Of a DNA stretch of 45,625 nucleotides, positions 7,422 through 35,094 are shown in pieces; within the stretch, counting starts at the first letter, position 1; the number at the start of each line of letters is the position of its first letter. The notes beneath the pieces were generated by a model, which was not told where the DNA came from, searched no databases, and saw nothing but the letters and a program-made list of their open reading frames with translations. This DNA comes from an uncultured Planctomycetales bacterium (GTDB taxonomy: Bacteria; Omnitrophota; Gorgyraeia; Gygaellales; Profunditerraquicolaceae), in assembly GCA_964405005.1 (NCBI GenBank), contig CAYOMI010000001.1, positions 1-45,625 of the forward strand, read 5' to 3'. The position numbers were made by a program, and so were the translations under genes.

Positions 7422-10196
7422 ATGAAAATTGCACTTATTCAATGTCCGGTTTGGGGAACCTACGATCCGCCGCTTGCCTTAGCTCAGCTTTCTGCCTGCC
7501 TGAAAAAGGAGGGACACGAAGTTTATGTCTTAGACTTGAATATTCAGCTGTATCTTAATCGTAAAGAGAATTATAAGAATATGTGGGCTTGGGAACAATG
7601 CGGTTTTTGGTACGAACCAGCCCATGTCTCAAAATTTTTTGCCGATAATCAGGATGTTATAAATCAATATGTAAATCTCATCCTGAAGAATAATCAAAGA
7701 CTTATCTGTTTTTCCGTGACTACTTCATCCCGGCTTGCCAGCCTGGAGTTAGCGAAGGCAATAAAGAAAGAGAATAAAGACGTAACCATTATTTTTGGAG
7801 GCACATTATTTTTTGAAAAACATTGGATAGAGTCGGTATTGAATGAAGGCGTAGTGGATATCGTGGTACATGGGGAAGGGGAGGTTACTCTTACCGAGCT
7901 GGTAAGTTTACTCGAGGAAAAGAAGCCGCTTGATTCATGCCTCGGCGTGTCTTTTAAAAACGGCAACAGGATATTTAATGGCTCTCCCAGGCCATTTATT
8001 GCAAATTTAGATGACTTGCCATTTATGGATTTCTCCGGTCTTCCTTTGAGCAATTACGATGACGCCGGGCACATCCCTTTTTTGGCTAGCCGAGGGTGCA
8101 TTCAGCAATGTGTATTTTGCAGTTCGAGGGTATTTTGGCCCGGCTACAGGCGAATGAGCGGACAAAGAATTTTTGAAGAAATAGCATTTCATAAAAATAG
8201 AGACAATGAATTGGGGCACATTGATTTTTTGGATCTGATGTTTAACGGCGATATAAAAGCGCTGAGTTCATTTTGCGATCTAATAATTAATTCAGAATTA
8301 AAGGGTAATATATGCTGGGTAGCTAACGTTATCATCAGGCCAGAGATGACTCCAGAGCTTTTGAAGAAGATGAAAGGGGCGGGCTGTAAGCACCTAATTT
8401 ACGGTATTGAGTCGGGTTCGCAAAAGGTGCTGAATCTAATGAAGAAACGTTACCAGATAGAGGATGCCGATGCTGTAATCAGGGCCACTCACGAAGCGGG
8501 GATAGTGGTAACCGCCAATTTTATGTTCGGATTTCCCGGAGAGGAAGAAGGCGATTTTATCAAGACCTTAGATTTTATCAAAAGAAACGCCAAATATTTA
8601 GATAGGGTTTATCCAAGCAGGACCTTTTGCGCCTTAGAAGAATTCAGCTATTTACATACCCACCTGGAGGAATTTAGCATCAAACTTAACCCCCCTAATC
8701 ATCTATATTGGGAATCAGCCGACAATAAAAATATTTATCCCGAACGCCTCAGGCGTTGCGAAGAATTTTGTAAATTGGCCCTGTCTCTGGGGATTGAGGT
8801 AGCCAGCGGCGTGCAAACCTCGGTTGAACTCGACCGCTGGTTTAATTTAGCGCATTATTATGAACACAGGAAAGACGTTAAAAATGCGCTTGATTGTTAT
8901 TTGAAATATTATGAATTGGAACCCAAAAATAAAATAGTAGCAGAAAGGATTATTGACTATTCTGCTGAAATAGAGAAGACCAAAATGGGGCTAAACTTAG
9001 ACTCGGATTTTTTGGCGAAATTCGCAACAGTTGTTAATGCGATTAATTCTAACAGCAAAAGCGATTTATCACCAACAAAAAAATTAGAAAAAATTGGAAG
9101 AGAAAGAAGCATCGCTATAGTGAAAGCTGAACAGAGAGACAATTCGCTACTCAATGACCTCGAATATAACAATAAAGTACCCGTCCTACATTCTACGCCC
9201 AAGGCTTTTTTTCTGCAGGCTTCAGGTCCGTGTAATTCCAGTTGCACATTTTGCTCTCGCGGTAACGACTATGAAATGTTTGACCTAGAAATATACAGAA
9301 AGCGATTTGAGCAGAAAATAAACTTTCATCTTTCCAGGGCCGAACAGATCATCTTTACCGGCTCGGGAGAATTTCTGCTTTTGCCCGAAGCCGAAGAGAT
9401 TTTAGATTATTTCGATATCACCTTTCCGCACGTAAATAAGATGTTTTCAACCAATGGCTCAAGCTTGACTCCGAAGATATGCAAAAAGATAGCCGCAAGC
9501 AGAAGTAAATATACCATACATATATCCCTGCATGCTTCTAATAGCAAACTATACAAGGTCCTTACCCGGACGGATAACTTTTATAAGATTTTAGGACAAG
9601 CAAAATACCTGCTTGAGATTCGCAAAGATACGGGAAACCCGGCAATCTACCTGATATTTGTAGCCACAACCTTAAATATCGAAGATTTACCTAATTTTGT
9701 TAGGCTGGCCGCTCATTTAAAAGCAGATAAAGTAATCTGTTATTATAACTATATATATGTTCCCGCCCAGAAATATCTATCCTGTTTTTTCAAACAGGAA
9801 CTTACCAATCAAATGCTTGATGAGGCGGAAAATATAGCTAAGCAGTTAAATGTAAAGATTGATTTGCCCCCAAGATTCGGTCAGGAGAAATACCACATTT
9901 TAGGTATTTGCCGGGAAGCCTGGGGTCAGATTATGTTTAATCTTGAAGGCCACATTTTGCCCTGCGATGCTTCTGAAGATTGTGATGAAACCCTGGAAGG
10001 GGTTAAATGGTTCAGGGATGCCTGGAACGGCGTTTATTATCAAAACTTAAGAAAATCTTTAGTCGATGGCACAAGCGACTGTTTTAAATATTGCTTCCGG
10101 GCGAATCCGCAAGCAGTTAATGATTTTCGTTCTCATGTCATTCGCCGCGGGAAGAAAGAATCAGAGATAAATATTTTATGGGGAGATAATTTTTGA
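7422..10196 (+). CDS. Dual radical SAM fusion: cobalamin-binding-type (class B) rSAM + linker + second rSAM with Cys-rich C-terminus
   Basis: 924 aa, the same length and layout as 1112..3886. It has MKIALIQCPVWG, VVHGEGEVTLTEL and the core SRGCIQQCVFC (Cys226 codon at 8097). A TPR-like linker is present (WFNLAHYYEHRKDVKNALDCYLKYYELEP). The second core is GPCNSSCTFC (Cys604 codon at 9231), followed by SGEFLLL. The C-terminal Cys cluster reads CREAWGQIMFNLEGHILPCDASEDCDE...CFKYCF. Confidence 0.88.
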   Translation: MKIALIQCPVWGTYDPPLALAQLSACLKKEGHEVYVLDLNIQLYLNRKENYKNMWAWEQCGFWYEPAHVSKFFADNQDVINQYVNLILKNNQRLICFSVTTSSRLASLELAKAIKKENKDVTIIFGGTLFFEKHWIESVLNEGVVDIVVHGEGEVTLTELVSLLEEKKPLDSCLGVSFKNGNRIFNGSPRPFIANLDDLPFMDFSGLPLSNYDDAGHIPFLASRGCIQQCVFCSSRVFWPGYRRMSGQRIFEEIAFHKNRDNELGHIDFLDLMFNGDIKALSSFCDLIINSELKGNICWVANVIIRPEMTPELLKKMKGAGCKHLIYGIESGSQKVLNLMKKRYQIEDADAVIRATHEAGIVVTANFMFGFPGEEEGDFIKTLDFIKRNAKYLDRVYPSRTFCALEEFSYLHTHLEEFSIKLNPPNHLYWESADNKNIYPERLRRCEEFCKLALSLGIEVASGVQTSVELDRWFNLAHYYEHRKDVKNALDCYLKYYELEPKNKIVAERIIDYSAEIEKTKMGLNLDSDFLAKFATVVNAINSNSKSDLSPTKKLEKIGRERSIAIVKAEQRDNSLLNDLEYNNKVPVLHSTPKAFFLQASGPCNSSCTFCSRGNDYEMFDLEIYRKRFEQKINFHLSRAEQIIFTGSGEFLLLPEAEEILDYFDITFPHVNKMFSTNGSSLTPKICKKIAASRSKYTIHISLHASNSKLYKVLTRTDNFYKILGQAKYLLEIRKDTGNPAIYLIFVATTLNIEDLPNFVRLAAHLKADKVICYYNYIYVPAQKYLSCFFKQELTNQMLDEAENIAKQLNVKIDLPPRFGQEKYHILGICREAWGQIMFNLEGHILPCDASEDCDETLEGVKWFRDAWNGVYYQNLRKSLVDGTSDCFKYCFRANPQAVNDFRSHVIRRGKKESEINILWGDNF

Positions 10197-10205
10197 TAAA
10201 TTATT

Positions 10206-11282
10206 ATGTGTAATAGTTGCATATCAGTATTAAAACAAAATTATTTCGAAGGCGCCCTACTTGAAAAGAAGAGTTTTTATATTAATAAAGAACTCAATAA
10301 ATTGGAAACTCAAGAAAAGAGGATAGTGTTAAAATCTAACCCTGTAAACTTGATGATTATCTTGACAAGGCGATGTAATTTAAAGTGTATTATGTGCCCG
10401 CGAATTCACGAAGAAAAGATTGCTTTGCCGTTAGAGTTAGTCGGGAAGCTCTACCCCCTTTTTCCCTATTTAGAATGGATTGATTGGCAGGGCGGAGAGG
10501 TTTTTTTGGTAGATTATTTTAAAAAATTATTTTTGGAAATATCTAACCGCCAACCTCATATATTGCAACATATAACCACTAACGGCTTACTTATAGATAA
10601 AGAATGGGCCGAAATTTTTTCACAATCGAATGTCGATTTACTGTATTCAATAGACGGCGTTACCAAAGATGTTTATGAATACGTAAGAACTGGAGCAAGG
10701 TTTGATGATTTGATAAGAAGTTTAGAGCTAATAAATGAATTCAAAGAAAAACGCGGTAACTATAATAGGTTAGAGATGACCGCGGTAGTTATGAAGTGTA
10801 ATTATAAGAATTTGTCTCTATTCCCGGATTTCTGCAAAAGATATAATTTTAATTCTTTGACGTTGAATTTTTTACAACCCGAAATAATTCCTGAACAGGA
10901 TATCCTTATTAACCCAGACCCTGAAGCCATTTCTTATTTAAGGGTAATCATCCCCCAAATTAAAAATACATGTAAAGAATATAATATCGAATTTAAATGT
11001 ATGTTCGAATCCCGCCTTATAGATTCTCAACAACACCCTTTGGACAAAAATATTAAGGCGGATCCGTATGATTGCATTTATCCTTGGACAAGAATTCACG
11101 TTCAACCCGATGGTAAAGTCTATCCCGCGTGTCAATGTAGTTTAAGCATCGGCGATCTTAAAAATAACACTTGGGAAGATATCTGGAATGGGCATACGAT
11201 GCAATTGTATCGGAATTTAATTTTTAACGGGCGAAGAGAAGAAATTTGTTCTCAGCAATGCCTTATTTATCCCCCTGATTAG
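10206..11282 (+). CDS. Radical SAM protein with SPASM-like C-terminal Cys cluster (type S)
   Basis: Core LTRRCNLKCIMCPR, then WQGGEVFL and TTNGLL. C-terminus CIYPWTRIHVQPDGKVYPACQCSLSIGDL...ICSQQC. Paralog of 13919..14971 and of the C-terminal third of 16797..19715. All three share the N-terminal L-x-QE-[KR]-[KR]-I-x-L-x-S signature. Confidence 0.85.
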   Translation: MCNSCISVLKQNYFEGALLEKKSFYINKELNKLETQEKRIVLKSNPVNLMIILTRRCNLKCIMCPRIHEEKIALPLELVGKLYPLFPYLEWIDWQGGEVFLVDYFKKLFLEISNRQPHILQHITTNGLLIDKEWAEIFSQSNVDLLYSIDGVTKDVYEYVRTGARFDDLIRSLELINEFKEKRGNYNRLEMTAVVMKCNYKNLSLFPDFCKRYNFNSLTLNFLQPEIIPEQDILINPDPEAISYLRVIIPQIKNTCKEYNIEFKCMFESRLIDSQQHPLDKNIKADPYDCIYPWTRIHVQPDGKVYPACQCSLSIGDLKNNTWEDIWNGHTMQLYRNLIFNGRREEICSQQCLIYPPD

Positions 11283-11295
11283 AGTCAATTTTGCC

Positions 11296-12999
11296 ATGGA
11301 ACCCAAAGTACGCTTTACCTGGAACATGCTTTATGACTGTAATTACCGTTGTAGCTATTGTTTTTTTGAGGGTAAATGGCAGGAATATAGAAAGAGAAAT
11401 ATATATCTTTCTCCGGCAGAATGGCTGGAATACTGGAAAGCAATCCGTGATAAATATGGGCCGCCCTATCTTAATATTACTGGCGGAGAGCCTTTCATAT
11501 ATCCTAATTTCATTGAAATAATAAATAAGCTTTCGCAAATCTGTTACCACGTAGATATATCCAGTAATTCCTCCGGCGATTTAAAAACGTTCGTAGAACA
11601 AATAGATCCACAGAGGGTTTCTTTATCGCTTAGTTTCCAGCCCCAGTTCGATATATTAGAAGATTTTATTGAGCGGGTTATTTTCATAAGGAATCATAAA
11701 TTTGAAGGTTGCTTGAATTTTGTGGCATATCCGCCCTTTCTGAAAGATATAAGGGCCTATAAAGATAAGATTAATTTCATCGGAGAGAATTTGAAGATTA
11801 TTCCATTTTTTGGCATATACGGGGGGCGGACATACCCCGGCGCATATACTCAGGAAGAGAAAGAACTGGTTGGGATCAGCGAGGCTTGGTTTGCAAAAGT
11901 TCGAAAAAAGGGATCGCTGTGCCATGCGGGCCAGAAGGCCGCGCTTATTTTTCCTGATGGCAAAGTAACCAGGTGTGGGCAGGTCGGGGAAAATATGCTT
12001 TTGGGAACTTTTTTTGATCCGGATTTCAAGCTTTTAGACAACCCCTTGCCTTGCGATGCCGAATTTTGTCCCTGCGATGAGGATAAAGTATTACCCACGG
12101 ATGGCAATGACAGCGCTACGGCGAAAGTTTTAGAAAACAAATCAGAAACGGAACCCAAAATACAATCAGAGGGGGAGCCTAAAAGAAGTATATACTTCAC
12201 CTGGGATATCCATTATAAATGTAATTTCCGCTGTCCTTATTGCTGGTTTTTTAGAGGATGGGCCGAAGGGGCCAGGCGCAATATATATTTTGCTCCGGAA
12301 GAGTGGATGAAACACTGGAAGAGGGTTTACGATAAATACGGGAAAGTTCATATAGAGATTACAGGAGGAGAGCCTTTTCTCTACCCAAATTTTATTGAAC
12401 TTATAAAATTACTTTCCGATGTTCACTCTGTTAAGGTTACGACCAATATGTCGGGAGATATCGAGACTTTTGTCAGAGAGATTGATCCGAAAAAGGTAAT
12501 TTTAGACCTTAATTTCCACCCCTTGTTTAGCGATATAGATGCGTTTATGAAAAAGACCTTACTTTTAAAAGATGCGGGTTTTAAAGCCGGCGTCTGTTAT
12601 CTTGCCTATCCGCCGCAGATGACAAGGATAAATATGTTCAAAGAGCGCTTTGAAGAGAACGGTATTAATTTTGCCCTCGCCGCGTTCTGGGGCGAATATA
12701 GAGGCAAGAGATATCCGGAAAGTTATACGCCGGAAGAGATAGAATTCATCCGCCCGTTTCTGGGGGATATTGATAGGATTGTCTATCATCTAAAGGGCGA
12801 AAGCCCCAAAGGCAAGTTGTGCAATGCGGGATATAAATACGCAGTTATCCAGGCCGATGGGAAAGTAATCAGATGCGGGCAATTAGCGGATAAAATAATA
12901 AGTAACTTTTTGCACGAAGACTTCCATCTTTTAGATAAAGCTGAACCTTGCGAAGCTGAGCATTGCCCCTGCAATGAGTATGTGAATCTTAGCAACTAG
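11296..12999 (+). CDS. Di-domain protein: two tandem compact radical SAM domains (type A-A)
   Basis: Core 1 is DCNYRCSYCFF (Cys15 codon at 11338), with TGGEPFIYPNF and the tail LPCDAEFCPCDE. An acidic/Ser-Thr linker follows (DGNDSATAKVLENKSETEPKIQSEGEPK). Core 2 is KCNFRCPYCWF (Cys309 codon at 12220), with TGGEPFLYPNF and the tail EPCEAEHCPCNE. Confidence 0.85.
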   Translation: MEPKVRFTWNMLYDCNYRCSYCFFEGKWQEYRKRNIYLSPAEWLEYWKAIRDKYGPPYLNITGGEPFIYPNFIEIINKLSQICYHVDISSNSSGDLKTFVEQIDPQRVSLSLSFQPQFDILEDFIERVIFIRNHKFEGCLNFVAYPPFLKDIRAYKDKINFIGENLKIIPFFGIYGGRTYPGAYTQEEKELVGISEAWFAKVRKKGSLCHAGQKAALIFPDGKVTRCGQVGENMLLGTFFDPDFKLLDNPLPCDAEFCPCDEDKVLPTDGNDSATAKVLENKSETEPKIQSEGEPKRSIYFTWDIHYKCNFRCPYCWFFRGWAEGARRNIYFAPEEWMKHWKRVYDKYGKVHIEITGGEPFLYPNFIELIKLLSDVHSVKVTTNMSGDIETFVREIDPKKVILDLNFHPLFSDIDAFMKKTLLLKDAGFKAGVCYLAYPPQMTRINMFKERFEENGINFALAAFWGEYRGKRYPESYTPEEIEFIRPFLGDIDRIVYHLKGESPKGKLCNAGYKYAVIQADGKVIRCGQLADKIISNFLHEDFHLLDKAEPCEAEHCPCNEYVNLSN

Positions 13000-13037
13000 A
13001 GATTTATCGTTATATTTTAGGAAGATTACAAAGCGAA

Positions 13038-13877
13038 ATGATGGAATTCAATTGGGACATTCATTATAAATGTAATTATAGGTGCCCTTATTGTCCGTTT
13101 TACGGAAAATGGCAAGAAGTATCGCAGGCGAGCAGGTATTTTTCTGTAGAAGAATGGATATCTGCATGGAGGAGGGTCTATAAGAAATACGGGACCGTGC
13201 GTATTATCATGGCCGGAGGAGAACCGATTATCTATCCTTCTTCATTCGCCCTAATTAAAGAATTATCGAGAATGCACCAACTCGATGTAGTTACTAATCT
13301 TTCGTGTTCAAAAGAGGTATTATCTGATTTAATCGGTCAACTTGATGATTCGCATAAATTATCTTTGAGTGCCAGCTATCAGCCGCTATTTACAAGTTTT
13401 GAACTTTTTCTGGAGAAAATATTGATTATAAAAGAAAAGGGCATCCTTGCCGGGATAAACATTGTAGCGTACCCCCCCGCATTGAAACTGTTAGGCTATT
13501 TCAAAGATGAATTCAAAAAAAACGGCTTTAACATAGTAATCTTGCCTTTTAGGGGAGAATACGGCGGAGTTATCTATCCTTATGGATATACAGCTGAAGA
13601 GGCCAGTATGATTTATGATCTGGCTGCCGATTTTCCAATAAAACAGCAGGAACAGCTGGAACAATTCATGCATCCGAATAAATCCAAGGGGAAACTTTGT
13701 TATGCCGGACAGAAATACGTGCATATTGGCTGTGATGCCCAAGTATACAGATGTAACACAGGCGAGCAAAGGATAGGTTATTTTTTCGACGAAAAGCTCA
13801 CCTTTCTGGAACATCCTTTGGTTTGCGAACAAGAAGTTTGCCCTTGCGAATTTAGGTGGCTGGTAAAGGATAATTGA
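13038..13877 (+). CDS. Compact radical SAM protein (type A)
   Basis: FNWDIHYKCNYRCPYCPF, AGGEPIIYPS, AYPPALKL and KGKLCYAGQKY. The C-terminal tail is LVCEQEVCPCEF. 279 aa, single domain. Confidence 0.85.
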   Translation: MMEFNWDIHYKCNYRCPYCPFYGKWQEVSQASRYFSVEEWISAWRRVYKKYGTVRIIMAGGEPIIYPSSFALIKELSRMHQLDVVTNLSCSKEVLSDLIGQLDDSHKLSLSASYQPLFTSFELFLEKILIIKEKGILAGINIVAYPPALKLLGYFKDEFKKNGFNIVILPFRGEYGGVIYPYGYTAEEASMIYDLAADFPIKQQEQLEQFMHPNKSKGKLCYAGQKYVHIGCDAQVYRCNTGEQRIGYFFDEKLTFLEHPLVCEQEVCPCEFRWLVKDN

Positions 13878-13918
13878 CGGGAAATGGACTATTTTTTTGA
13901 TTGCAGCCCATATTAATT

Positions 13919-14971
13919 ATGTATTCTGAATCTAAAAAAGATTCCGGCCTTTTTTTAAATAACAAAGAGATTAATGCGGAAGAGACGAAGGAACGCAAGA
14001 TAACCCTGGAATCCAAGCCTTTGTTACTGGGGATTATAATCAATGATTGGTGTAACCTGGATTGCATTATGTGCCTGGACTCAAGGCATAAAAATCAATA
14101 CGCTTTATCCGTGCCTGCCTTATGGAAAATCAAGGAATTATTGCCTTATCTTGAAAGAATAGATTGGCAGGGAGGAGAATTTTTTCATTTAGATTATATG
14201 AAGGAAATATTCCTGTTTATGAAGGGTTATCCCCATATAAGGCACACCATCACTACAAACGGTTTACTATTAAATGAAGAATGGATAGAATTACTGCTCA
14301 ATTTAAATACGGCGGTGACTTTTTCTATTGATAGCCCCAGAAAAGAAACATACGAATATATACGCCGGGGCGGCAGTTACGATGAATTGATAGAGCGCCT
14401 CAATTTAATTATTGACTTAGAGCAAAAATATAAAAAGAGACTAGAAAGATACCTTACCGTCGTTGTTATGAAGTCTAATTACCTCCATTTAGCTGAATTT
14501 GTTGAGTTCGCAAAAAAATATGGATTTAGTTCTGTGTTTTTTTCTCCTGTGAGACACCTGGAAAATGAAGAAAACATTTTTAAGCATATTAGTGAAGATA
14601 CCCAAAAATACCTTAGTAGGATTATGAGCGAATTGAAATCTCGTTTCGCTGAAAGCGGCATAGAATTTAAGTGTAATCTACCGGAGTCCCATAAGAGGCC
14701 GGATGTTGTTCAGGGCGGATTGCCGATAAAGAAGGAAGGGGATTTATTATGCGATCTCCCCTGGAAAGGGATGTTCATCTGTGCTGAAAGAAATGGCGAT
14801 ATTGTTCCTGACTGCTGGTGTTTACAGCCAATAGGTAATATCTTCCAGAATACTTTGCTGGAAGCCTGGAATAGCCAGAAAATGCAGGAATATCGCAGAA
14901 GAATAGCCGCGTACGATATGGGGCTGTGTAGCGAATGTTATGCGCAAGACCAATATATCAGGTCTTTTTAA
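13919..14971 (+). CDS. Radical SAM protein with SPASM-like C-terminal Cys cluster (type S)
   Basis: Core NDWCNLDCIMCLD, then WQGGEFFHL and TTNGLLL. C-terminus CDLPWKGMFICAERNGDIVPDCWCLQPIGNIF...LCSECY. The preferred start is the ATG at 13919 (MYSESKK...). The ORF track starts at a TTG at 13901. The stop abuts the next gene's start (TAAATG). Confidence 0.83.
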   Translation: MYSESKKDSGLFLNNKEINAEETKERKITLESKPLLLGIIINDWCNLDCIMCLDSRHKNQYALSVPALWKIKELLPYLERIDWQGGEFFHLDYMKEIFLFMKGYPHIRHTITTNGLLLNEEWIELLLNLNTAVTFSIDSPRKETYEYIRRGGSYDELIERLNLIIDLEQKYKKRLERYLTVVVMKSNYLHLAEFVEFAKKYGFSSVFFSPVRHLENEENIFKHISEDTQKYLSRIMSELKSRFAESGIEFKCNLPESHKRPDVVQGGLPIKKEGDLLCDLPWKGMFICAERNGDIVPDCWCLQPIGNIFQNTLLEAWNSQKMQEYRRRIAAYDMGLCSECYAQDQYIRSF

Positions 14972-15904
14972 ATGATTAAACCGCCGCCCGATTTTAGAAG
15001 GGGTATCGCTCCGCATAGGGTATTTTTTAACTGGGAGGTTACTTATAAATGTAATTATAACTGTTCGTATTGCAGTTTTGGGGGTGCCTCTAAGAGAAAA
15101 GAACCGCGGCCCACCGTTTATCCCGGCATAGATAAATGGTTTCAGGCATGGCACAGTATATACCAAAGATACGGCAGTTGCGAAATACATTTTGCTGGCG
15201 GCGAACCTTTTGTCTACCCTGAATTTATGGATTTAATCGAGCAGTTATCCGAAATCCATACGATGGAATTTTCTACAAATCTTTTTTGGGATCCCGATGA
15301 TTTTATAAAGAGAATAAGACCCGGCAGAGCGCGTATAGGCGTAAGTTTCCATTCCGAATTCGTTGATTTTGATACCTTTTTTTTAAAGGCGTTAAGCCTT
15401 AAAGGGGCGGGTTTTGAAGTTTGGGCAAATTATGTTGCCTACCCCCTGTTTATGGAAGGCATGGATAAATATAAGAAAAAATTCGAAGAATCCGGAATAT
15501 CGATGTCTATTTTGCCTTTTAAGGGCAAGTATGACGGAAGGGAATACCCCGAAAGTTACACCCGGCAGGAAAGAGAGTGCCTGAGGAAACTCGGCACATC
15601 CAGTTGGACAGAGAAAACCCTGGATTTCGCTTTTGATAAAGAGAAAGGCAATGTTCGCGATAAGCTGTGTCACATGGGACAGATGTATGCAAAGATACAC
15701 CCCGACGGCGAAGTTTATAACTGCTGCGCGGAAAACGCCTTAAGGTTAGGTAATATTATTGATGGCACGTTCTCTCTATTGGAGGAACCGTTTTTCTGCA
15801 AACAAAGCAATTGTCCCTGTTGGAGGGCTATGGTCGTGGGGAATGCGGGTTATTGGCTGGAACATTGGCCGGTTCCTCCCGATGCAAGATATAATAACAC
15901 GTAG
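14972..15904 (+). CDS. Compact radical SAM protein (type B variant)
   Basis: FNWEVTYKCNYNCSYCSF, AGGEPFVYPEF, ANYVAYP and LCHMGQMYAKIHPDGEVYNCC. The tail is FCKQSNCPCWRAMVVGNAGYWLEHWPVPPD. This tail and the CEIH/ANYVAYP signatures recur only in the middle domain of 16797..19715. Confidence 0.85.
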   Translation: MIKPPPDFRRGIAPHRVFFNWEVTYKCNYNCSYCSFGGASKRKEPRPTVYPGIDKWFQAWHSIYQRYGSCEIHFAGGEPFVYPEFMDLIEQLSEIHTMEFSTNLFWDPDDFIKRIRPGRARIGVSFHSEFVDFDTFFLKALSLKGAGFEVWANYVAYPLFMEGMDKYKKKFEESGISMSILPFKGKYDGREYPESYTRQERECLRKLGTSSWTEKTLDFAFDKEKGNVRDKLCHMGQMYAKIHPDGEVYNCCAENALRLGNIIDGTFSLLEEPFFCKQSNCPCWRAMVVGNAGYWLEHWPVPPDARYNNT

Positions 15905-15936
15905 CTATTTACAGAGTTAAAGCGGAGAAGGCCGTT

Positions 15937-16752
15937 TTGGACAATCAGATTTTATTCTCTTGGGATATTCATTATGTTTGTAATTACCGCTGTCCCTACT
16001 GCTGGTTTGACGAGATATGGTGTGACTTAGCGAAACAAAATAAATATTTGCCTATAGGAAAAATAATAGAAGCATGGGAGAAGATTTATATAAATTATGG
16101 TCCTGCGCGTATTGCGGTTTTAGGCGGCGAGCCATTTATCTACCCCCGCTTTAAGGAATTAATCAGAGAGTTATCCAGAATGCATTTTTTGGAAATTACT
16201 TCTAACCTATCCGTTAAATTAGATTACTTTATGGAAGAAATAAATCCTCCGCGGGTAAGCGTTACCGGCACATTCCATCCCCTGTTTGCTGATTTCGACA
16301 ACTTCATTAAAAATGTCTTGCCCTTGAAGGAAAAGGGCACCTGTCACCAGATATGGTACGTGGCTTATCCGCCTCAAATTAAGCTAATGCAGTATTACAA
16401 AAAGAAATTCGATAAATATAAAATTCCGGTTTCAGTAATGACTTTTTGGGGAAATTGCCACGGCATAAGATATCCTCAGGGTTATACAAAAGAAGAAAAG
16501 GATATTATTGCGCCGTATCTTGGCGAAAGGGGAGGAGAAGAGTTTCAATTGAAGCCTAAAAAGACAAAAGGGAAATTATGTCGTGCCGGCCAGGCATATG
16601 CTGTTATCAAAGCAGGCGGTCTGGCATACAGATGCAGCGAGAGTTGCCTTGAGCCGATAGGCAATTTTTTTAGCAATAATTTTAAATTGCTGAAGGAGCC
16701 CCGGCCCTGCGAATCTGAATTTTGCCCCTGTAATGAATGGCGCTTTTGTTAG
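15937..16752 (+). CDS. Compact radical SAM protein (type A)
   Basis: FSWDIHYVCNYRCPYCWF, LGGEPFIYPRF, AYPPQIKL and KGKLCRAGQAY. The tail is RPCESEFCPCNEW. TTG start at 15937 preceded by GGAGAAGG. About 55-60% identical by eye to the first domain of the next gene, with exact nucleotide patches shared. Confidence 0.82.
   Translation: MDNQILFSWDIHYVCNYRCPYCWFDEIWCDLAKQNKYLPIGKIIEAWEKIYINYGPARIAVLGGEPFIYPRFKELIRELSRMHFLEITSNLSVKLDYFMEEINPPRVSVTGTFHPLFADFDNFIKNVLPLKEKGTCHQIWYVAYPPQIKLMQYYKKKFDKYKIPVSVMTFWGNCHGIRYPQGYTKEEKDIIAPYLGERGGEEFQLKPKKTKGKLCRAGQAYAVIKAGGLAYRCSESCLEPIGNFFSNNFKLLKEPRPCESEFCPCNEWRFC
15968..15995. repeat. 28-nt exact direct repeat, copy 1 (rSAM core of 15937..16752)
   Basis: ttcattatgtttgtaattaccgctgtcc is identical at 16843..16870. 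It encodes HYVCNYRCP. Confidence 0.9.
16699..16740. repeat. 42-nt exact direct repeat, copy 1 (3' end of 15937..16752)
   Basis: ccccggccctgcgaatctgaattttgcccctgtaatgaatgg is identical at 17574..17615. It encodes PRPCESEFCPCNEW in both genes. Confidence 0.9.
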
Positions 16753-16796
16753 TTAAACCAGAAAAGTCTGCCGTTTAAAATAGAATAAAAAGAAAG

Positions 16797-19715
16797 ATGG
16801 AAAGGGAGAAGATAACAAGTAAAATCTCATTTAGCTGGGACCTTCATTATGTTTGTAATTACCGCTGTCCATATTGTTGGTTCCACGGCAAATGGCAGGG
16901 GCTGATTAATCAGAATAAATATTATCCCCTCCCGGAATTATTAAAAACGTGGAAGGTTATCTACAGGAAATACGGTTCCGCGTGCATTAAGATTATAGGC
17001 GGCGAGCCATTTATCTATCCGAATTTTACTGAATTAATAAAAGAATTGTCGCAGGTCCATACTATTTGGATTGCGAGTAATTTATCTACGGACATAGACG
17101 ACTTTGTAAGGCAGATTAATCCCGCTAATGTCAAAGTAAACCCGACCTTCCATCCTTTGTTTGCCGACTTCGGCAGATTTATCAAGAAATTATTACTTTT
17201 AAAAGAAAACGGCATAGCAGACCTTGTGACTTTTCTAGCTTATCCGCCTCAGATTAAACTGATAAAGTATTATGCGGATAAATTTAATGAGTATGGGATT
17301 CCGCTTTCAGCAATGACTTTTTGGGGGCAATATAATAAGACCAGCTATCCCCAGGGCTATAGCGAAGAGGAAAAATCTCTTATCGCGCCATATCTGTCAG
17401 GCGAGGAAGAAGAAAAATTTCAATTAGAACCTAAAAAGGTACAGGGAAAATTATGCCGCGCCGGGCAAGTGTATGCTGCTGTCCAGGCAGATGGTTCCGT
17501 ACGCAGATGCGGCGGCATTGGCTCTCAGGCGATGGGTAATTTCTTTTGCAGCGAATTTAATTTACTGGAACAACCCCGGCCCTGCGAATCTGAATTTTGC
17601 CCCTGTAATGAATGGGTAGGATTATTAATTGATGGCGAAGGACCTGTTGAGTCCACAAAAGAAAAAAATGACGGCATCCGACTATCTTTTGCGGTAGAAA
17701 GAGAAACCGCAGGGATTAAAAGAGAGATTGACCGCAGTTCTATCCCGCCTAAGAGGGTTTTTCTGACCTGGGATATACACTATGGTTGTAATTATAACTG
17801 TACTTATTGCAATACCCCAAAACCCTGGAATCCGCCGGGTTCGTGGGACCGCGATCGGGATAAGGTAGTTTATCTGGAAGCTGATAGGTGGCTTAAAATA
17901 TGGGATGATATCTATAGAAGATATGGCAGTTGCGAAATCCATATAACGGGCGGCGAACCCTTTACTTACCCTTCCTTTCTTGAATTGATACGGGATTTAT
18001 CCAAGATGCATACCTTGGAAATTATTACCAATCTCTCTTTGAATGTTAATGACATTATTGCTGCCGTAACAGCCGATCGAGTGCGTATCGGCACTACCTT
18101 TCACCCCGAATTCGCTGATTTAAAAGAATTCTTAGCAAAACACCTTATTCTAAGAGGACACGGTTTTGAGACGTGGGCGAATTACGTCGCTTATCCTCCC
18201 CAATTAGAGAGAATGGCAGAGTATAAAAAAGAATTTGATAATCTGGGAATACCGTTTAATATCCAGCCTTTTATGGGGCATTTTCAAGAACGGGAATACC
18301 CGAAAGACTACACGAAGGAAGAATTAGCCTATTTAAAGGGATGCTACGATAGCGAAGACGTTGTCAATAAAAAGACCGTAGAATGGAAGACCGGCTCGGA
18401 ACAAAAGAATACTAAAGGCAAACCGTGTCGTATGGGCCAGATGTATGCCAAGATTTATCCCATAGGAGATGCTTATCGGTGCTGTGCAAATAAGGCTAAA
18501 AAAATAGGTAATTTAATCGACGGCACCTTCGAGCTGTTAGGGGAGCCCTTACCCTGCGAAAACGAACATTGTTTTTGTTGGAGGTGTATGCTGGAGGGCG
18601 AAGAAGATAACTGGTCGCAACACTGGGTTATTCCGGGAGACTACCGCAAGCCCGTAAATAAATTACAAAACCGGTACTTAGAAAACAAAAAACTCAATCA
18701 ACTCGAGATACAAGAAAGAAAGATTAAACTCGATTCGAAGTTAAGAAGGCTCATGGTTGTTCTGACAGGCAGGTGCAATATAGATTGCATAATGTGCGAA
18801 AGAAAATCAAACGGTTCTACTTTTCCCCGGCAAGCCATTGAACAAATCGTCGGCCTTTTCCCGTACCTCGATTCGATTATGTGGCAGGGGGGAGAAGTAT
18901 TTATGGTTGATTATTTCAAAGAATTTTTTCAAGAAGCTTCCAGGTATCCTCAGTTGACCCAGGAGATAAATACCAACGGTCTGCTTATTACAGAAGAATG
19001 GGCTGAGAATATAGCCAGAGCAAATACGAGGTTGATTTTTTCTATTGATAGCACGGATAAAACTATATACGAATATATAAGAAAAGGGGCAAAATTTGAA
19101 ACTTTAATCAGGAATGTTAGTCTAATTAAAGAAGCAAAACAACGGTATAACAAACTCGAAGCTATGGATATCATCAATATTGTGGTAATGCGTTCCAATT
19201 ATGAGCATTTGGATAGCTTTATAGATTTCGCATTAGAATACGGTTTTAGAGGACTTAACTTTATGTATATGAACGGCAATATCTGTCCGGAAGAAAATAT
19301 ATTCAGCCCCGCTGACAGACAGGCTCAAGATTATCTTAGGCGTTGCGTACCCCGGATTATAGAAAGGGGCAATAGCTTAAATATAAATGTAACTTGCGAC
19401 TTTACGCCTCTGTTATTTGACGACCGGTCTATAGCTCTAAAGGAATCCAAATCCGGCCGGGGAGAAGACGGGCTATTCTGTTTGCTGCCCTGGAAATCTT
19501 TATTTATTGATGGTACGCAAGAAGGGAATGTCTATCCGGAGTGCGTATGCCGTATTCCTGTAGGCAACATATTCAAGGAGCCCCTCACCGAGATCTGGAA
19601 CAGCGAGAATATGCAGGCGTATCGCAATAAGATTATAAACCGCGAGTTAGAAAACTGGTGTAATTCTAATTGTATTAACGGGATAGTAAACAAAGACTTT
19701 ATACAGGGTTTATAA
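16797..19715 (+). CDS. Triple radical SAM fusion (compact type A + compact type B + SPASM-like type S)
   Basis: 972 aa with three CxxxCxxC cores. They are VCNYRCPYC (Cys20 codon at 16854), GCNYNCTYC (Cys331 codon at 17787) and GRCNIDCIMC (Cys660 codon at 18774). Each domain keeps its GGE(P/V)F motif and its own Cys-rich tail: PCESEFCPCNEW, PCENEHCFCWRCMLEGEEDNWSQHWVIPGD and CLLPWKSLFIDG...ECVCRIPVGNIF...WCNSNC. Confidence 0.88.
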   Translation: MEREKITSKISFSWDLHYVCNYRCPYCWFHGKWQGLINQNKYYPLPELLKTWKVIYRKYGSACIKIIGGEPFIYPNFTELIKELSQVHTIWIASNLSTDIDDFVRQINPANVKVNPTFHPLFADFGRFIKKLLLLKENGIADLVTFLAYPPQIKLIKYYADKFNEYGIPLSAMTFWGQYNKTSYPQGYSEEEKSLIAPYLSGEEEEKFQLEPKKVQGKLCRAGQVYAAVQADGSVRRCGGIGSQAMGNFFCSEFNLLEQPRPCESEFCPCNEWVGLLIDGEGPVESTKEKNDGIRLSFAVERETAGIKREIDRSSIPPKRVFLTWDIHYGCNYNCTYCNTPKPWNPPGSWDRDRDKVVYLEADRWLKIWDDIYRRYGSCEIHITGGEPFTYPSFLELIRDLSKMHTLEIITNLSLNVNDIIAAVTADRVRIGTTFHPEFADLKEFLAKHLILRGHGFETWANYVAYPPQLERMAEYKKEFDNLGIPFNIQPFMGHFQEREYPKDYTKEELAYLKGCYDSEDVVNKKTVEWKTGSEQKNTKGKPCRMGQMYAKIYPIGDAYRCCANKAKKIGNLIDGTFELLGEPLPCENEHCFCWRCMLEGEEDNWSQHWVIPGDYRKPVNKLQNRYLENKKLNQLEIQERKIKLDSKLRRLMVVLTGRCNIDCIMCERKSNGSTFPRQAIEQIVGLFPYLDSIMWQGGEVFMVDYFKEFFQEASRYPQLTQEINTNGLLITEEWAENIARANTRLIFSIDSTDKTIYEYIRKGAKFETLIRNVSLIKEAKQRYNKLEAMDIINIVVMRSNYEHLDSFIDFALEYGFRGLNFMYMNGNICPEENIFSPADRQAQDYLRRCVPRIIERGNSLNINVTCDFTPLLFDDRSIALKESKSGRGEDGLFCLLPWKSLFIDGTQEGNVYPECVCRIPVGNIFKEPLTEIWNSENMQAYRNKIINRELENWCNSNCINGIVNKDFIQGL
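16843..16870. repeat. 28-nt exact direct repeat, copy 2 (first rSAM core of 16797..19715)
   Basis: Identical to 15968..15995. Confidence 0.9.
17574..17615. repeat. 42-nt exact direct repeat, copy 2 (end of first domain of 16797..19715)
   Basis: Identical to 16699..16740. The flanking bases differ on both sides. Confidence 0.9.
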
Positions 19716-19721
19716 TTTAAA

Positions 19722-21098
19722 ATGAAGGTTGCTTTAGTCTTGCCGCCCTTCCTTTACAAAAGGTGCCCTTTGATTGGATTAGCTTATCTTTCGGCATATT
19801 TAAAAAATAAGGACTTTGAGGTGGCCACCTTTGATTTAAATACTGAAATGCAAATTCCTAACGAAGGAGAAGAGAGGTTGTGGGCGGACTCTTTGTTTGT
19901 AAATAAATTCTTCAATAAACACCATGGCCTGTTTGAGTCTCTAGCAGAAAAGATATTACAGAGCCAGGCAGATATTATCGGATTTTCAGTATGGACTACC
20001 ACTAAACATGTTAGTTTGGCTTTGGCAAAGATAATCAAACACAAAGATAAAAGGAGGTTAATAGTCTTCGGTGGTCCAGAATGTAGTTTTTACGGCGAAA
20101 GTTTTATTAAAGACGAAGCAGTAGATATAGTAATCCGAGGAGAAGGCGAGGAGACTATTTTAGAAATAGCCCAGGCGTATAAAAAATATGGAAAAATAAA
20201 TTTTTGTCCGGGCGTTTTATTAAAGACAGATGGCGAAATAATCGATTGTGGATATAGGAATGAAATAGAAAACTTAGACTCTCTATCTTTTCCCGATTTT
20301 TCTGATTTTCCGCTTGAAAGATATTATTTAGTCAATACGCTTCCTCTGATGTTTAATAGGGGATGTTTAAGACGTTGCGTTTTCTGTAATACTTCGGTGG
20401 TCTGGAAAAAATGCCGATTTAGAAGCGCAGAAAACATTTATAAAGAAATATTATATCAAATTAAAGGTTATCCTCGGCTTCGAAAATTTGAAATTGATGA
20501 TACGGCGCTAAATCTCAATCTTAAAGAATTGTCAGAATTGTGCGATTTAATAATTACCAGCGGTCTAAAAATTGATTGGGGAGGTTCTGCAATAATTCAT
20601 CCTCAGATGGATTATAATTTATTAGCGAAGATGGCACAAGCGGGTTGTAGTTCTCTGGCTTATGGCTTAGAAAGCGGTTCGCAAAAAGTAGTCGATAGCA
20701 TAAGAAAAGGTTTCAAGATAGAAGAAGCCGAAAGGATAATTCGCGATACCTATAATACGGGAATCAAGGTGGTGTTAAATATAATAATTGGGTTCCCTAA
20801 TGAGGCTGAAAATGACTTTCGGCAAACAATGGAATTTATTAGAAGAAATAGAAACTATATTTTCTCCATCGCTCCTCCCAGCGAATGCTGGATCGGGAAT
20901 ACGGCATATTTGCATACCCATCCCGAAGATTTCAATGTAATTTTAAAAGAAGGCGGAGAATATTGGGAATCGGCGGATAAACTAAATACTCATGAAGAAA
21001 GACAAAGGAGAATAAAGATTTTTAACGATTTTATTTATTCTCTGCGGATACCGCTCGGTAGTGCTAATAAGCAGGAAATAATTCACTCAGGGACTTAA
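19722..21098 (+). CDS. Cobalamin-binding-domain (class B) radical SAM protein, clade I
   Basis: MKVALVLPP..., FGGPECSFY, IRGEGEETILEI, core NRGCLRRCVFCNT, GLESGSQKV and IIGFPNEAENDF. Confidence 0.85.
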   Translation: MKVALVLPPFLYKRCPLIGLAYLSAYLKNKDFEVATFDLNTEMQIPNEGEERLWADSLFVNKFFNKHHGLFESLAEKILQSQADIIGFSVWTTTKHVSLALAKIIKHKDKRRLIVFGGPECSFYGESFIKDEAVDIVIRGEGEETILEIAQAYKKYGKINFCPGVLLKTDGEIIDCGYRNEIENLDSLSFPDFSDFPLERYYLVNTLPLMFNRGCLRRCVFCNTSVVWKKCRFRSAENIYKEILYQIKGYPRLRKFEIDDTALNLNLKELSELCDLIITSGLKIDWGGSAIIHPQMDYNLLAKMAQAGCSSLAYGLESGSQKVVDSIRKGFKIEEAERIIRDTYNTGIKVVLNIIIGFPNEAENDFRQTMEFIRRNRNYIFSIAPPSECWIGNTAYLHTHPEDFNVILKEGGEYWESADKLNTHEERQRRIKIFNDFIYSLRIPLGSANKQEIIHSGT

Positions 21099-21124: not shown

Positions 21125-22510
21125 GTGAAAATTGTTTTGGTCCGCTGCCCGTGTATTAGTTTACCCTATCCACCCTCGATAGGCATGGCATACCTTAACT
21201 CTTTCCTGAAAAAAGCCGGACACGAAGTATTTATCTTTGACTTGAATATTGAGCTGTTTCATTCTGTTAACGATGAGAAGAAAAAAATATGGAACACGCC
21301 GGACGGTTCCAGTTTAATCAAATTATCCGAAGAAGTCATTTCCGACCATAATGATTTGTTTAATAATTATATAAGAAAAATACTGGCAACAGAAGCAACT
21401 GTAATCGGTTTTTCTGTCTGGGATAGCAACATTTTATGTAGTTTAAAATTTGCCCGAGAGATCAAAAAACTCAATAGAAGTATAAACATTGTGTTCGGCG
21501 GTCCCGAATGTTTTCCGAGGTGGTCGGGGAAAACTTTAATTAAAGAAGATTGCGTAGATGTGGTTGTTTATGGCGAAGGAGAAAAAACTTTAAAAGAATT
21601 AATCGACTATATAGAAGTGACGGGAAGAATCGGGCTTCATCCGGGCACGATTGTAAAAAATAATTTTAATATTATAGATTGCAGCAGCAGAGAACCAATA
21701 AAGGATTTAGATAGTATGCCGTTTCCTGATTTTAACGGTTTTCCTTTGGATAAATATATGACTAACGAATTTCCTATTATTTTTAACCGAGGATGCACAA
21801 GAAAATGTACATATTGTTCTCTGCCAGGCACCACGCCTCGATATCGTTGGCGCAGCGCTGATTCTATATATGAAGAGATGAAGTATCAAATTCGGAAACA
21901 CCCTCAAATAGATTCGTTTCATTCAGACTCCCCCGCCTTAAATTCTAATCTTAAAGAACTATCGAAATTATGCGATTTAATTATTCGCGATGGTTTAAAA
22001 ATAATATGGTCTGGATTCGCGGTTATTGATAAAGATATGGATTTAAGTTTATTAAGAAAAATGAAACAAGCAGGATGCCTTGGTTTAAACTTCGGCATAG
22101 AAAGCGGTTCCCAAAGAGTAACCGATAAAATGCGAAAAGGGTTCCGAATTCAAGATTCCGAGCAGAATATTCGAGATGCTTATAGTGCCGGAATAGAAGT
22201 AGTTGCAAATTTTATCGTGGGTTTTCCCGGTGAAAACGAAGAAGATTTCCAGCTAACATTAGATTTTATTTCGCGTAATCGGCAATACATTTCTTTCGTG
22301 GGCAGCGCAGCTTCTTGTTGGATATTGCCGTATATGTATCTTTATGACCACACTGATGAATTTGGTATTACGATGCATTCCGGCGACTGGTCTTGCGAAG
22401 GAAACAATTATCAGATAAGGAAGGCAAGAGAGGATAGGTTTAGGGAATTTATCAATTCACTCAATATCGGAAAATCATTTCCTAAATTACCACAGGAGGT
22501 TGGCCGGTAA
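21125..22510 (+). CDS. Cobalamin-binding-domain (class B) radical SAM protein, clade I
   Basis: The GTG start gives MKIVLVRCPC, matching the family N-terminus, and AAGGGGG lies upstream. Motifs FGGPECFPR, VYGEGEKTLKEL, core NRGCTRKCTYCSL, GIESGSQRV and IVGFPGENEEDF. Confidence 0.85.
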   Translation: MKIVLVRCPCISLPYPPSIGMAYLNSFLKKAGHEVFIFDLNIELFHSVNDEKKKIWNTPDGSSLIKLSEEVISDHNDLFNNYIRKILATEATVIGFSVWDSNILCSLKFAREIKKLNRSINIVFGGPECFPRWSGKTLIKEDCVDVVVYGEGEKTLKELIDYIEVTGRIGLHPGTIVKNNFNIIDCSSREPIKDLDSMPFPDFNGFPLDKYMTNEFPIIFNRGCTRKCTYCSLPGTTPRYRWRSADSIYEEMKYQIRKHPQIDSFHSDSPALNSNLKELSKLCDLIIRDGLKIIWSGFAVIDKDMDLSLLRKMKQAGCLGLNFGIESGSQRVTDKMRKGFRIQDSEQNIRDAYSAGIEVVANFIVGFPGENEEDFQLTLDFISRNRQYISFVGSAASCWILPYMYLYDHTDEFGITMHSGDWSCEGNNYQIRKAREDRFREFINSLNIGKSFPKLPQEVGR

Positions 22511-22517
22511 AGTTGTT

Positions 22518-26833: not shown

Positions 26834-26849
26834 ATATGTCGGCAAGCAA

Positions 26850-34983: not shown

Positions 34984-35094
34984 AAGGGGGTTGCCGAAAA
35001 ACTGCGTAAAGCAAAAGTGCTTGTGGAGCGCCGGGAGGCAGAATATAATACAATCAGGATGCATAGTTCGTTGGACTATCAGCCTCCTATTTGA
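34984..35094 (+). pseudogene. Remnant of the C-terminus of an IS3-family (rve/DDE integrase-type) transposase
   Basis: Translation reads KGVAEKLRKAKVLVERREAEYNTIRMHSSLDYQPPI*. It matches the conserved extreme C-terminus of IS3-type transposases (..A..L.E.W...YN..RPHSSLGY.PP..). The match is degenerate: RPH has become RMH and GY has become DY. No upstream catalytic domain, start codon or inverted repeats are present. Confidence 0.65.

Follow-up and report, generated by a model that had tools for sequence, protein, structure and literature searches.

We report that the compact radical S-adenosylmethionine (SAM) domains encoded in one stretch of DNA from an uncultured bacterium form a twitch-type radical SAM (rSAM) subfamily which is organised in multi-paralog arrays. 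The array is conserved across genomes and this conservation is our main new result; the twitch rSAM class itself is known. The stretch analysed, referred to as the window, is a whole contig of 45,625 bases (CAYOMI010000001.1), and the array occupies its positions 10206-19715. No characterised subfamily claims the compact family, and neither Pfam nor NCBIfam holds a dedicated model for it.

An array of seven compact and three S-type domains

The array consists of seven closely packed genes on the plus strand, with intergenic gaps of 0-44 bp. We designate the compact rSAM domains of about 270 amino acids (aa) D1 to D7 and the rSAM/SPASM-like (S-type) domains of about 350 aa S1 to S3. A profile built from homologs of the compact domains detected exactly seven domains, each scoring 340-405 bits, and no other part of the window exceeded 35 bits, a result far beyond chance. 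Scanning with an S-type profile gave three domains at 610-618 bits (at 10206, at 13901 and at the C-terminus of gene 16797). The seven compact copies and three paralogous S-type domains described in an initial annotation of the sequence are thereby borne out. The domains are as follows, with scores of Pfam or of our hidden Markov models (HMMs); letters denote the clades described below.

10206..11282, plus strand: S1, rSAM protein with SPASM/twitch-like C-terminus, 358 aa (Pfam Radical_SAM 44 bits, SPASM 40 bits; S-type HMM 611 bits)
11296..12093, plus strand: D1, clade A, N-terminal half of the 567-aa gene 11296..12999 (compact HMM 345 bits)
12181..12999, plus strand: D2, clade D, C-terminal half of gene 11296..12999 (compact HMM 392 bits)
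13038..13877, plus strand: D3, clade N, 279 aa (compact HMM 340 bits)
13901..14971, plus strand: S2, rSAM protein with SPASM/twitch-like C-terminus, 356 aa (Pfam Radical_SAM 66 bits, SPASM 30.5 bits)
14972..15904, plus strand: D4, clade F, 310 aa (compact HMM 340 bits)
15937..16752, plus strand: D5, clade B, 271 aa (compact HMM 398 bits; AlphaFold2 (AF2) model)
16809..17627, plus strand: D6, clade B, first domain of the 972-aa fusion gene 16797..19715 (compact HMM 405 bits)
17751..18596, plus strand: D7, clade F, second domain of gene 16797..19715 (compact HMM 340 bits)
18657..19715, plus strand: S3, rSAM/SPASM-like third domain of gene 16797..19715 (S-type HMM 618 bits; Pfam SPASM 51.9 bits)

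The start of the S2 gene is ambiguous (TTG at 13901, or 13919), and the start codon of D4 directly abuts the S2 stop codon. Pairwise identity is 33-56% among the compact domains and 36-40% among the S domains. All seven compact domains carry a CX3CX2C motif some 12-30 residues from the start, followed by GGEP[FI], AYP[PL] and a cysteine-rich tail; CX3CX2C is found in all three S domains as well. Pfam Radical_SAM (PF04055) is matched with 38-137 bits per protein, above its gathering threshold of 29.5, which places the proteins in the rSAM superfamily. As to the motifs given in the initial annotation, GGEP[FI] is indeed present in 7/7 copies, and the F-x-W start fails in D7, which begins with L-T-W. 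AYPP, assigned to five of the seven, occurs in six, gene 14972 alone having AYPL, and the supposedly invariant L-C-x-[AM]-G-Q fails in D2 (LCNAGY) and D7 (PCRMGQ). The tail of D3 ends in CPCEF, while D4 bears CEIH and ANYVAYPL, and its tail has CPCWR.

The array is conserved across genomes

Homologs of the compact family amount to about 925 clusters at 50% identity (E<=1e-30), and a scan of species-representative genomes revealed 330 relatives. The best 80 of these 330 all stem from metagenome-assembled genomes (MAGs) of Omnitrophota and Elusimicrobiota/Endomicrobiales, along with a few labelled Planctomycetales. Counts out of 49 refer to the related loci of at least 10 kb, and the clustering of domains to 289 compact domains from 69 loci; individual loci carry L numbers. 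At least two compact copies are present in 43 of the 49 loci (median 5, maximum 9), and rSAM proteins account for 473 of the 790 genes of at least 150 aa in related loci. The most constant partner of the array are cobalamin-binding rSAM (B12-rSAM) genes, which stand alongside it in 45/49 loci. With C for a compact domain, S for an S-type domain and B12 for a B12-rSAM, the fusions observed were C~C (21 times), C~C~C (3), B12~C or C~B12 (7), C~B12~C (2) and C~S (1).

Average-linkage clustering resolved 38 clades (16 with at least 7 members), and the seven window domains represent five of the 38: A, D, N, B (two domains) and F (two domains). These ortholog clades replace the two subtypes initially proposed, the former type A comprising A, D, N and B and the former type B being F. 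Arrays contain essentially one member per clade in a preserved order, and most consist of distinct clades only (e.g. 7/7, 8/9, 9/9). Written as clade letters, Omnitrophota arrays read A D B F or A D F B F, those of Endomicrobia and Elusimicrobia A H G I B C M, and those of the 'Planctomycetales' MAGs A A D H G N B C M; the order of the window is A D N F B B F. Clade A is found in 44 loci and is usually first in the array. The A~D fusion recurs in Omnitrophota loci, and the B~F fusion is also present in L009, L011, L016 and L018.

Each window domain has orthologs elsewhere with 56-83% identity, as compared to 40-57% for the best paralog in the window. Orthologs are 72-73% identical for D1 (L009, L026, L015), 74-76% for D2, 67% for D3 (L039), 70-83% for D4 and 77-78% for D7. 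The S domains likewise are nearer to orthologs in other genomes than to each other. For S1 the nearest ortholog is 46% identical versus 41% for the best in-window paralog, and orthologs of S2 reach 87% (L039) and 66% (L009). Those of S3 (58-59%) are separate genes following a clade B~F fusion in L016 and L018; gene 16797 of the window thus joins what both loci have as adjacent genes, B~F and S. D5 and D6 are 57% identical to each other, and L009 and L010 each contain a single ortholog which is the best match of both. This suggests that D5/D6 are the only window pair resembling a comparatively recent duplication. Because the five clades recur one per array, in order and with nearer orthologs elsewhere, we conclude from the sequence comparison that the clades are ancient and that the paralogs are specialised and non-redundant.

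S-type domains (at least 150 bits) are found in just 21/49 loci, and in relatives the S genes are either grouped at the end of the array (C C C C C C C S S S S) or missing altogether. Homologs elsewhere thus occur as multi-copy arrays as well, but not as a rule next to S-type partners. The three repeated sets of S-type and compact genes, previously regarded as a unit, are not conserved.

In one Elusimicrobia MAG (L006:8420-9864), a Y1 (IS200/IS605-type) transposase gene and an ORF6N-domain gene are located between the fifth and sixth compact genes.

The compact domain ends in a twitch domain

D5, 56 database homologs and the six other window domains were aligned (63 sequences). Invariant among them are the rSAM cysteines C15, C19 and C22 and exactly four tail cysteines, C215, C233, C258 and C263; the latter are kept in essentially every ungapped member of the 289 domains. 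The fifth tail cysteine, C265 ('CPC'), is present in 50/63 aligned homologs and in 74% of the 289 domains, so that of the four to five conserved cysteines noted initially four are truly invariant. Their spacing, C215-x12-G-x4-C233 ... C258-x4-C263, is the SPASM/twitch signature. In the HMMER alignment the tail pairs column for column with the twitch domain of SkfB (LCRAG..DGKVARC..LPCEAEVCPC with FCTPG..DGYVTPC..LKCEAKNCKC). Judged by these motifs, the C-terminal tail represents a regular twitch domain, which is SPASM in its single-cluster form. The domain had been considered much shorter than canonical SPASM/twitch enzymes; it is in fact of usual size for a twitch enzyme, BtrN having 246 residues in its solved structure. 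Based on the four invariant tail cysteines and the alignment with the SkfB twitch domain, each compact domain likely binds one fully cysteine-ligated auxiliary Fe-S cluster. The earlier suggestion of such a cluster is the natural reading of the conserved cysteines.

The full SPASM motif, CX9-15GX4C...CX2CX5CX3C...C, contains seven to eight cysteines and ligates two auxiliary clusters. The compact domains, with 4-5 tail cysteines, do not conform to it, and the Pfam SPASM model (PF13186) aligns with the first 19-39 of its 67 positions only, in genes 11296 and 14972 only.

The AF2 model of D5 (pLDDT 94.2, pTM 0.91) has a six-unit beta/alpha core, a beta-hairpin at residues 221-231 and a C-terminal helix. 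Hence the GGE-type motif found by motif scan is accompanied by a partial (beta/alpha)6 barrel in the model, both being hallmarks of rSAM enzymes. Foldseek comparison of this model with the PDB retrieved SkfB, BlsE, SuiB, MoaA, CteB, viperin, anSME, EpeE, BtrN and SpeY at 10-17% identity. Matches of probability 1.0 had TMq values of 0.66 (SkfB), 0.59 (BlsE), 0.58 (MoaA), 0.46 (BtrN) and 0.44 (SpeY). Tail signature, SkfB alignment and fold matches together place the compact family in the SPASM/twitch branch of rSAM enzymes, without a close solved or characterised relative.

S1-S3 match PF13186 over its full length (30-52 bits; gathering score 21.5), and their C-termini have only about five conserved cysteines. 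The AF2 model of S2 (pLDDT 89.5) gave SuiB, SkfB and anSME as best Foldseek matches. Against specific NCBIfam families all S-type scores are below cutoff, the best being N_Twi_rSAM and the tungsten-enzyme maturase. For N_Twi_rSAM (NF033640, cutoff 170 bits), S1 scored 92.6 and S2 77.4 bits, and gene 16797 scored 118 bits summed over several domains. Comparison of the two profiles shows that compact and S-type domains are homologous (hhalign probability 97%, E 7e-11).

Gene context and proposed pathway

We surveyed 128 co-directional non-rSAM genes in related loci, considering the 25 commonest of 101 matched families. Glycosyltransferases (GTs) dominate: GT2 was found 16 times, GDSL 11, PMT_2 10, tetratricopeptide repeat (TPR) proteins 9, GT9 5 and class I methyltransferases 5, followed by NodU/TobZ carbamoyltransferases (4), sulfatases (3) and ABC transporters (3). 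YdjC, DegT, AsnB-like and ABC-2 permease genes also occur in related loci. Several apparent families that emerged from all-versus-all gene clustering in loci with high guanine-cytosine (GC) content were artefacts of antisense open reading frames (ORFs), rich in R, A, G and P, and were discarded. The pairing of GT2 with GT-C genes, together with YdjC and SGNH, is reminiscent of periplasmic glycan modification of the Arn/Gtr type. From these flanking genes, the most likely substrate would be a sugar linked to a nucleotide or to polyprenyl phosphate, or else a glycan of the cell envelope, in anaerobic Omnitrophota and Elusimicrobiota, although for a glycan substrate as such we regard the chances as evenly balanced.

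Overall, we lean towards the explanation that the array encodes seven specialised paralogs of an uncharacterised twitch rSAM subfamily acting in a radical glycan-tailoring pathway, whose substrate and reaction are suggested by context. The enzymological part of this explanation can be put forward with considerable confidence. The N-terminal CX3CX2C site, within the partial triosephosphate isomerase (TIM) barrel, would hold a [4Fe-4S] cluster with SAM and generate a 5'-deoxyadenosyl radical by reductive SAM cleavage, and the radical would abstract a substrate hydrogen. The closed four-cysteine auxiliary cluster would then serve as electron sink or relay. Such an electron-accepting role of the auxiliary cluster is established for BtrN, anSME and SkfB. 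Owing to the full cysteine ligation we favour this role over substrate binding to the cluster as in MoaA, and it would imply net oxidative chemistry, i.e. dehydrogenation, epimerisation or cross-linking. The arrays with one member per clade in fixed order and the recurrent fusions suggest that the paralogs divide the work on a common substrate, each with its own step or position, in a multi-enzyme pathway and possibly in a physical complex. B12-rSAMs may contribute C-methylation and, like the SPASM-like rSAMs, would work alongside the compact enzymes.

Several observations weigh against a glycan-tailoring pathway of this kind. SkfB, the nearest match in both sequence and structure, is a peptide-modifying enzyme. 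The S-type and B12 partners carry fused TPR domains, a kind of domain that often binds peptides or proteins, and the best, sub-threshold NCBIfam matches of the B12-rSAMs are C-methyltransferases of ribosomally synthesised and post-translationally modified peptides (RiPPs). No glycan-initiating phosphotransferase of the WecA/WbaP type was seen in the fetched flanks. The partnership of compact and S-type enzymes is not obligatory, given the 21/49 loci above. Finally, both contig ends lie inside the cluster, so that its gene set is incomplete.

Some of these points fit a RiPP or protein maturation system, in which the compact enzymes would function in the manner of SkfB as sactisynthases, epimerases or cross-linkers without a RiPP recognition element (RRE), the peptide or protein would be recruited by TPRs and B12-rSAMs would C-methylate it as in proteusins. 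SkfB is the best full-length PDB match by sequence and fold, with SuiB, CteB and anSME next; the top NCBIfam matches of the B12-rSAMs are a RiPP C-methyltransferase and ApyD; TPR fusions to S-type and B12-rSAM genes are common, and some loci contain an ABC transporter pair. The matches to RiPP-family HMMs are all far below their cutoffs, however, and no precursor peptide candidate was found in the few intergenic gaps of the window. The only conserved small ORF (at least 50 aa) across loci encodes a hydrophobic membrane protein of 54-62 aa (...KLWWLIPM...VVPFIYxLF), which is not precursor-like. It recurs in the clusters at L014:20477-20662, L018:20012-20197, L024:13886-14047 and L029:9744-9920, and we presume that it resembles small proteins beside carbamoyltransferase genes. 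Moreover, RRE/PqqD, C39 peptidase, LanB/C and YcaO are absent from the 25 commonest neighbour families. We therefore consider peptide maturation improbable.

Somewhat less probable again is a pathway that tailors a lipid of the membrane (hopanoid-, tetraether- or ladderane-like) or some other small molecule that is not a glycan, such as a cofactor, with C-C or C-H chemistry of the compact enzymes on alkyl chains. It would account for sub-threshold B12-rSAM matches to HpnJ, HpnR, the 'ladder' lipid B12-rSAM family and BchE, for weak N-terminal matches of compact domains to the tetraether synthase Tes, and for an rSAM with a DUF3463 (HpnH-type) segment encoded by gene 33830. That protein, however, best matches PTO1314, MoaA and NirJ rather than HpnH, and the apparent 'phytoene desaturase' 26778 is PRK07208- or UDP-galactopyranose mutase (UGM)-like (375 bits versus 42 bits for CrtI). 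GDSL 'lipase-like' paralogs are abundant, but SGNH/GDSL proteins are equally typical of glycan O-acyl metabolism. Genes of fatty-acid, isoprenoid or glycerolipid synthesis were found neither in the window and the Pfam tables of the individual loci nor among the 25 commonest neighbour families.

That the copies are redundant or decaying tandem duplicates of one enzyme, without pathway logic, is hardly credible, since the probable recent duplication of D5/D6 stands against catalytic and cluster motifs kept in all seven domains, five clades with nearer orthologs in other phylum-level lineages than in the window, and arrays that mostly hold distinct clades only.

Returning to glycan tailoring, a wider form of it can be proposed tentatively: a hitherto unrecognised, phylum-spanning 'radical assembly line' with these arrays as its core, in which at least 16 orthologous compact clades, fixed in gene order and frequently fused, together with cobalamin-dependent rSAM methylases and TPR-SPASM enzymes would carry out a long serial C-H functionalisation of a sugar or glycan. 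Its reactions could include oxidation, epimerisation, C-methylation and possibly C-C or C-O cross-links. If this were true, Omnitrophota and Elusimicrobiota would produce envelope glycoconjugates of a new class, extensively modified at their carbon atoms.

Enzymes of the rSAM superfamily are a major source of new enzymology. A subfamily of about 925 clusters without a characterised member indicates the scale of uncharacterised chemistry, and conserved multi-paralog arrays imply a long radical pathway. To our knowledge, radical tailoring of carbohydrates has so far been the work of individual enzymes, among them BtrN, DesII, GenK and BlsE; its range would be greatly widened if the substrate is a glycan, with a bearing on the cell surfaces of uncultured Omnitrophota and Elusimicrobiota, which often are ultra-small or host-dependent. 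Constructs for the co-expression of several enzymes could be modelled on the recurrent natural fusions (C~C, C~B12~C, C~C~S).

Other genes of the window

The window contains 34 ORFs, all on the plus strand, and about 23 rSAM domains. Outside the array, rSAM domains are found in seven B12-rSAM genes that stand alone, in two genes for 924-aa fusions and in two more genes of SPASM type. The 5' contig end cuts a TPR gene, and a PMT_2-like ORF (44065..45624) runs off the 3' end. Further genes encode GT9, GT2 and GT4 glycosyltransferases, and two are PMT_2 (GT-C) genes. The features outside the array are:

1112..3886, plus strand: paralog of 7422..10196, 924-aa tripartite B12-binding rSAM/TPR/rSAM protein with SPASM-like end (Pfam; SPASM seen in 1112..3886)
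3868..4935, 4916..5953, 5977..7413, 22500..23639 and 39413..40471, plus strand: five SGNH/GDSL-esterase paralogs (library matches)
7422..10196, plus strand: upstream neighbour of the array, 924-aa B12-binding rSAM protein with TPR and a second rSAM/SPASM-like domain (Pfam B12-binding, Radical_SAM twice)
19722..21098 and 21125..22510, plus strand: downstream neighbours, two B12-binding rSAM genes (Pfam B12-binding and Radical_SAM)
26778..28322, plus strand: PRK07208-type flavin adenine dinucleotide (FAD) oxidoreductase, Pfam 'amine oxidase' (PRK07208 375 bits, cutoff 389; weaker UDP-galactopyranose-mutase match)

The second rSAM domain of both 924-aa proteins is distant from S1-S3 (~20% identity; 28-31 bits with the S-type HMM, the weak match of 7422..10196 being 28 bits). 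Of the SGNH/GDSL paralogs, 5977..7413 carries fused TPR repeats and 39413..40471, the one whose N-terminus was read, has a hydrophobic and probably membrane-spanning N-terminus. Their best, weak NCBIfam match is the Leptospira LA_2486 esterase family; handling of O-acyl groups on a glycan is one possibility. The coordinates of the FAD oxidoreductase begin at the first possible start (TTG), which overlaps the upstream PMT_2 gene by ~55 bp, and the true start may be further downstream.

A 189-aa protein with a hydrophobic C-terminus (36057..36626) had no Pfam or NCBIfam match and recurs in 6 related loci; a relative at L028:11941-12981 is apparently duplicated in tandem within one polypeptide. 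In one of the few intergenic gaps, at 35017..35094, lies the short ORF MLVERREAEYNTIRMHSSLDYQPPI, which we take to resemble the C-terminal end of an rve/IS3-type integrase and which may be an insertion sequence (IS) remnant.

Comparison with known families and systems

Comparison with HMMs, solved structures and the literature placed the compact family in no characterised subfamily, nor were its tail cysteines unconserved in homologs, either of which would have spoken against the initial view of an uncharacterised family; that view stands. Searches of the literature on STM4011, on rSAM enzymes of Omnitrophota/Elusimicrobiota, and on twitch or B12-rSAM enzymes in polysaccharide and O-antigen clusters yielded no account of the family or its arrays.

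Three known systems were considered and rejected. An anammox ladderane, hopanoid or carotenoid cluster had been prompted by the GC content, the B12-rSAMs and the 'amine oxidase'; the flavoprotein is PRK07208/UGM-like, lipid-family matches are far below cutoff and lipid-synthesis genes are lacking nearby. The rSAM-rich loci beside nitrogenase paralogs in Elusimicrobia (bioRxiv 10.1101/765248) are a different system, as none of the 69 loci contains a NifH P-loop protein. With regard to antiviral defence by viperin/pVip, compact domains match the N-terminal ~100 model positions only, at 35-54 bits versus a cutoff of 180 (NCBIfam, PADLOC); S-type domains match ~190 of 257 positions and still are well below cutoff.

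MoaA can be set apart as well. Compact domains score 29-35 bits each against the MoaA equivalog cutoff of 284, the PDB alignment ends before the tail, and the C-terminal cluster of MoaA has three cysteines and an open Fe site in place of the four invariant tail cysteines.

The best NCBIfam match of every compact domain is STM4011 (NF038073), over model positions 11-254 of 278. This family is itself uncharacterised, and in the searchable literature it is mentioned just once, in passing. The alignment of plasmid-borne members with D5 covers 93-98% of the latter at 21-25% identity, and CNYxCPYC and all five tail cysteines are common to both. Nevertheless, the cutoff of 200 bits is reached neither by the single-domain window proteins (63.9-89.5 bits) nor by the multi-domain proteins, in which two domains add up to 141-147 bits. 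STM4011 has YGEA/WGEA in place of GGEP and lacks AYPP. Rather than forming arrays, it is single-copy and belongs to a cassette of five genes in constant order, STM4015-4014-4013(hydrolase)-4012(rSAM)-4011, which is carried by Paenibacillus, Deinococcus and Streptomyces plasmids and has no B12-rSAMs or glycosyltransferases nearby. Nothing like this cassette was found in the window or related loci. On plasmids L076 (NZ_CP013205.1) and L077 (NZ_CP097151.1), the cassette has the appearance of a mobile system of five genes, two of them for rSAMs, that is so far uncharacterised; that of Deinococcus lies beside an IS200/IS605 transposase, with a RES-Xre toxin-antitoxin pair ~5 kb away.

SPASM maturases (anSME, SuiB, CteB, PqqE) resemble the S-type domains in their match to Pfam SPASM and in the fold of S2, nearest to SuiB, SkfB and anSME. 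They differ in that canonical SPASM domains have 7-8 cysteines and two auxiliary clusters, compared with four invariant cysteines and a fifth in 74% of compact domains and ~5 in the S-type. Array proteins have no RRE, and their scores against the specific NCBIfam maturase models are all far below cutoff.

BtrN, SpeY and BlsE act on carbohydrates (aminocyclitol or sugar-nucleoside) and are encoded among glycosyltransferase and aminotransferase genes in butirosin, spectinomycin and blasticidin biosynthesis. They are similar in size to the compact domains and share the N-terminal CX3CX2C and a single twitch auxiliary cluster (Foldseek E 9e-9 for BlsE, 1.4e-5 for BtrN and 3.7e-5 for SpeY). At 12-13% identity and TM-scores of 0.36-0.59, the likeness does not extend to HMM membership at the sequence level, and they are single-copy, in contrast to 4-9 compact paralogs per locus.

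SkfB, the sactisynthase of Bacillus subtilis (PDB 6efn), is only 15% identical to D5. It stands as a lone enzyme beside its peptide gene and has an N-terminal RRE of ~100 aa for the precursor peptide, whereas the compact domains begin about 10 residues ahead of CX3CX2C and lack an RRE. SkfB is nonetheless the top-ranked structure (TMq 0.66, E 9e-9), the profile matches it over its full length (E 7e-9), and its twitch motif, FC-x-xG...G-x-V-x-x-C...CEAxxCxC, is nearly superimposable on the compact tail.

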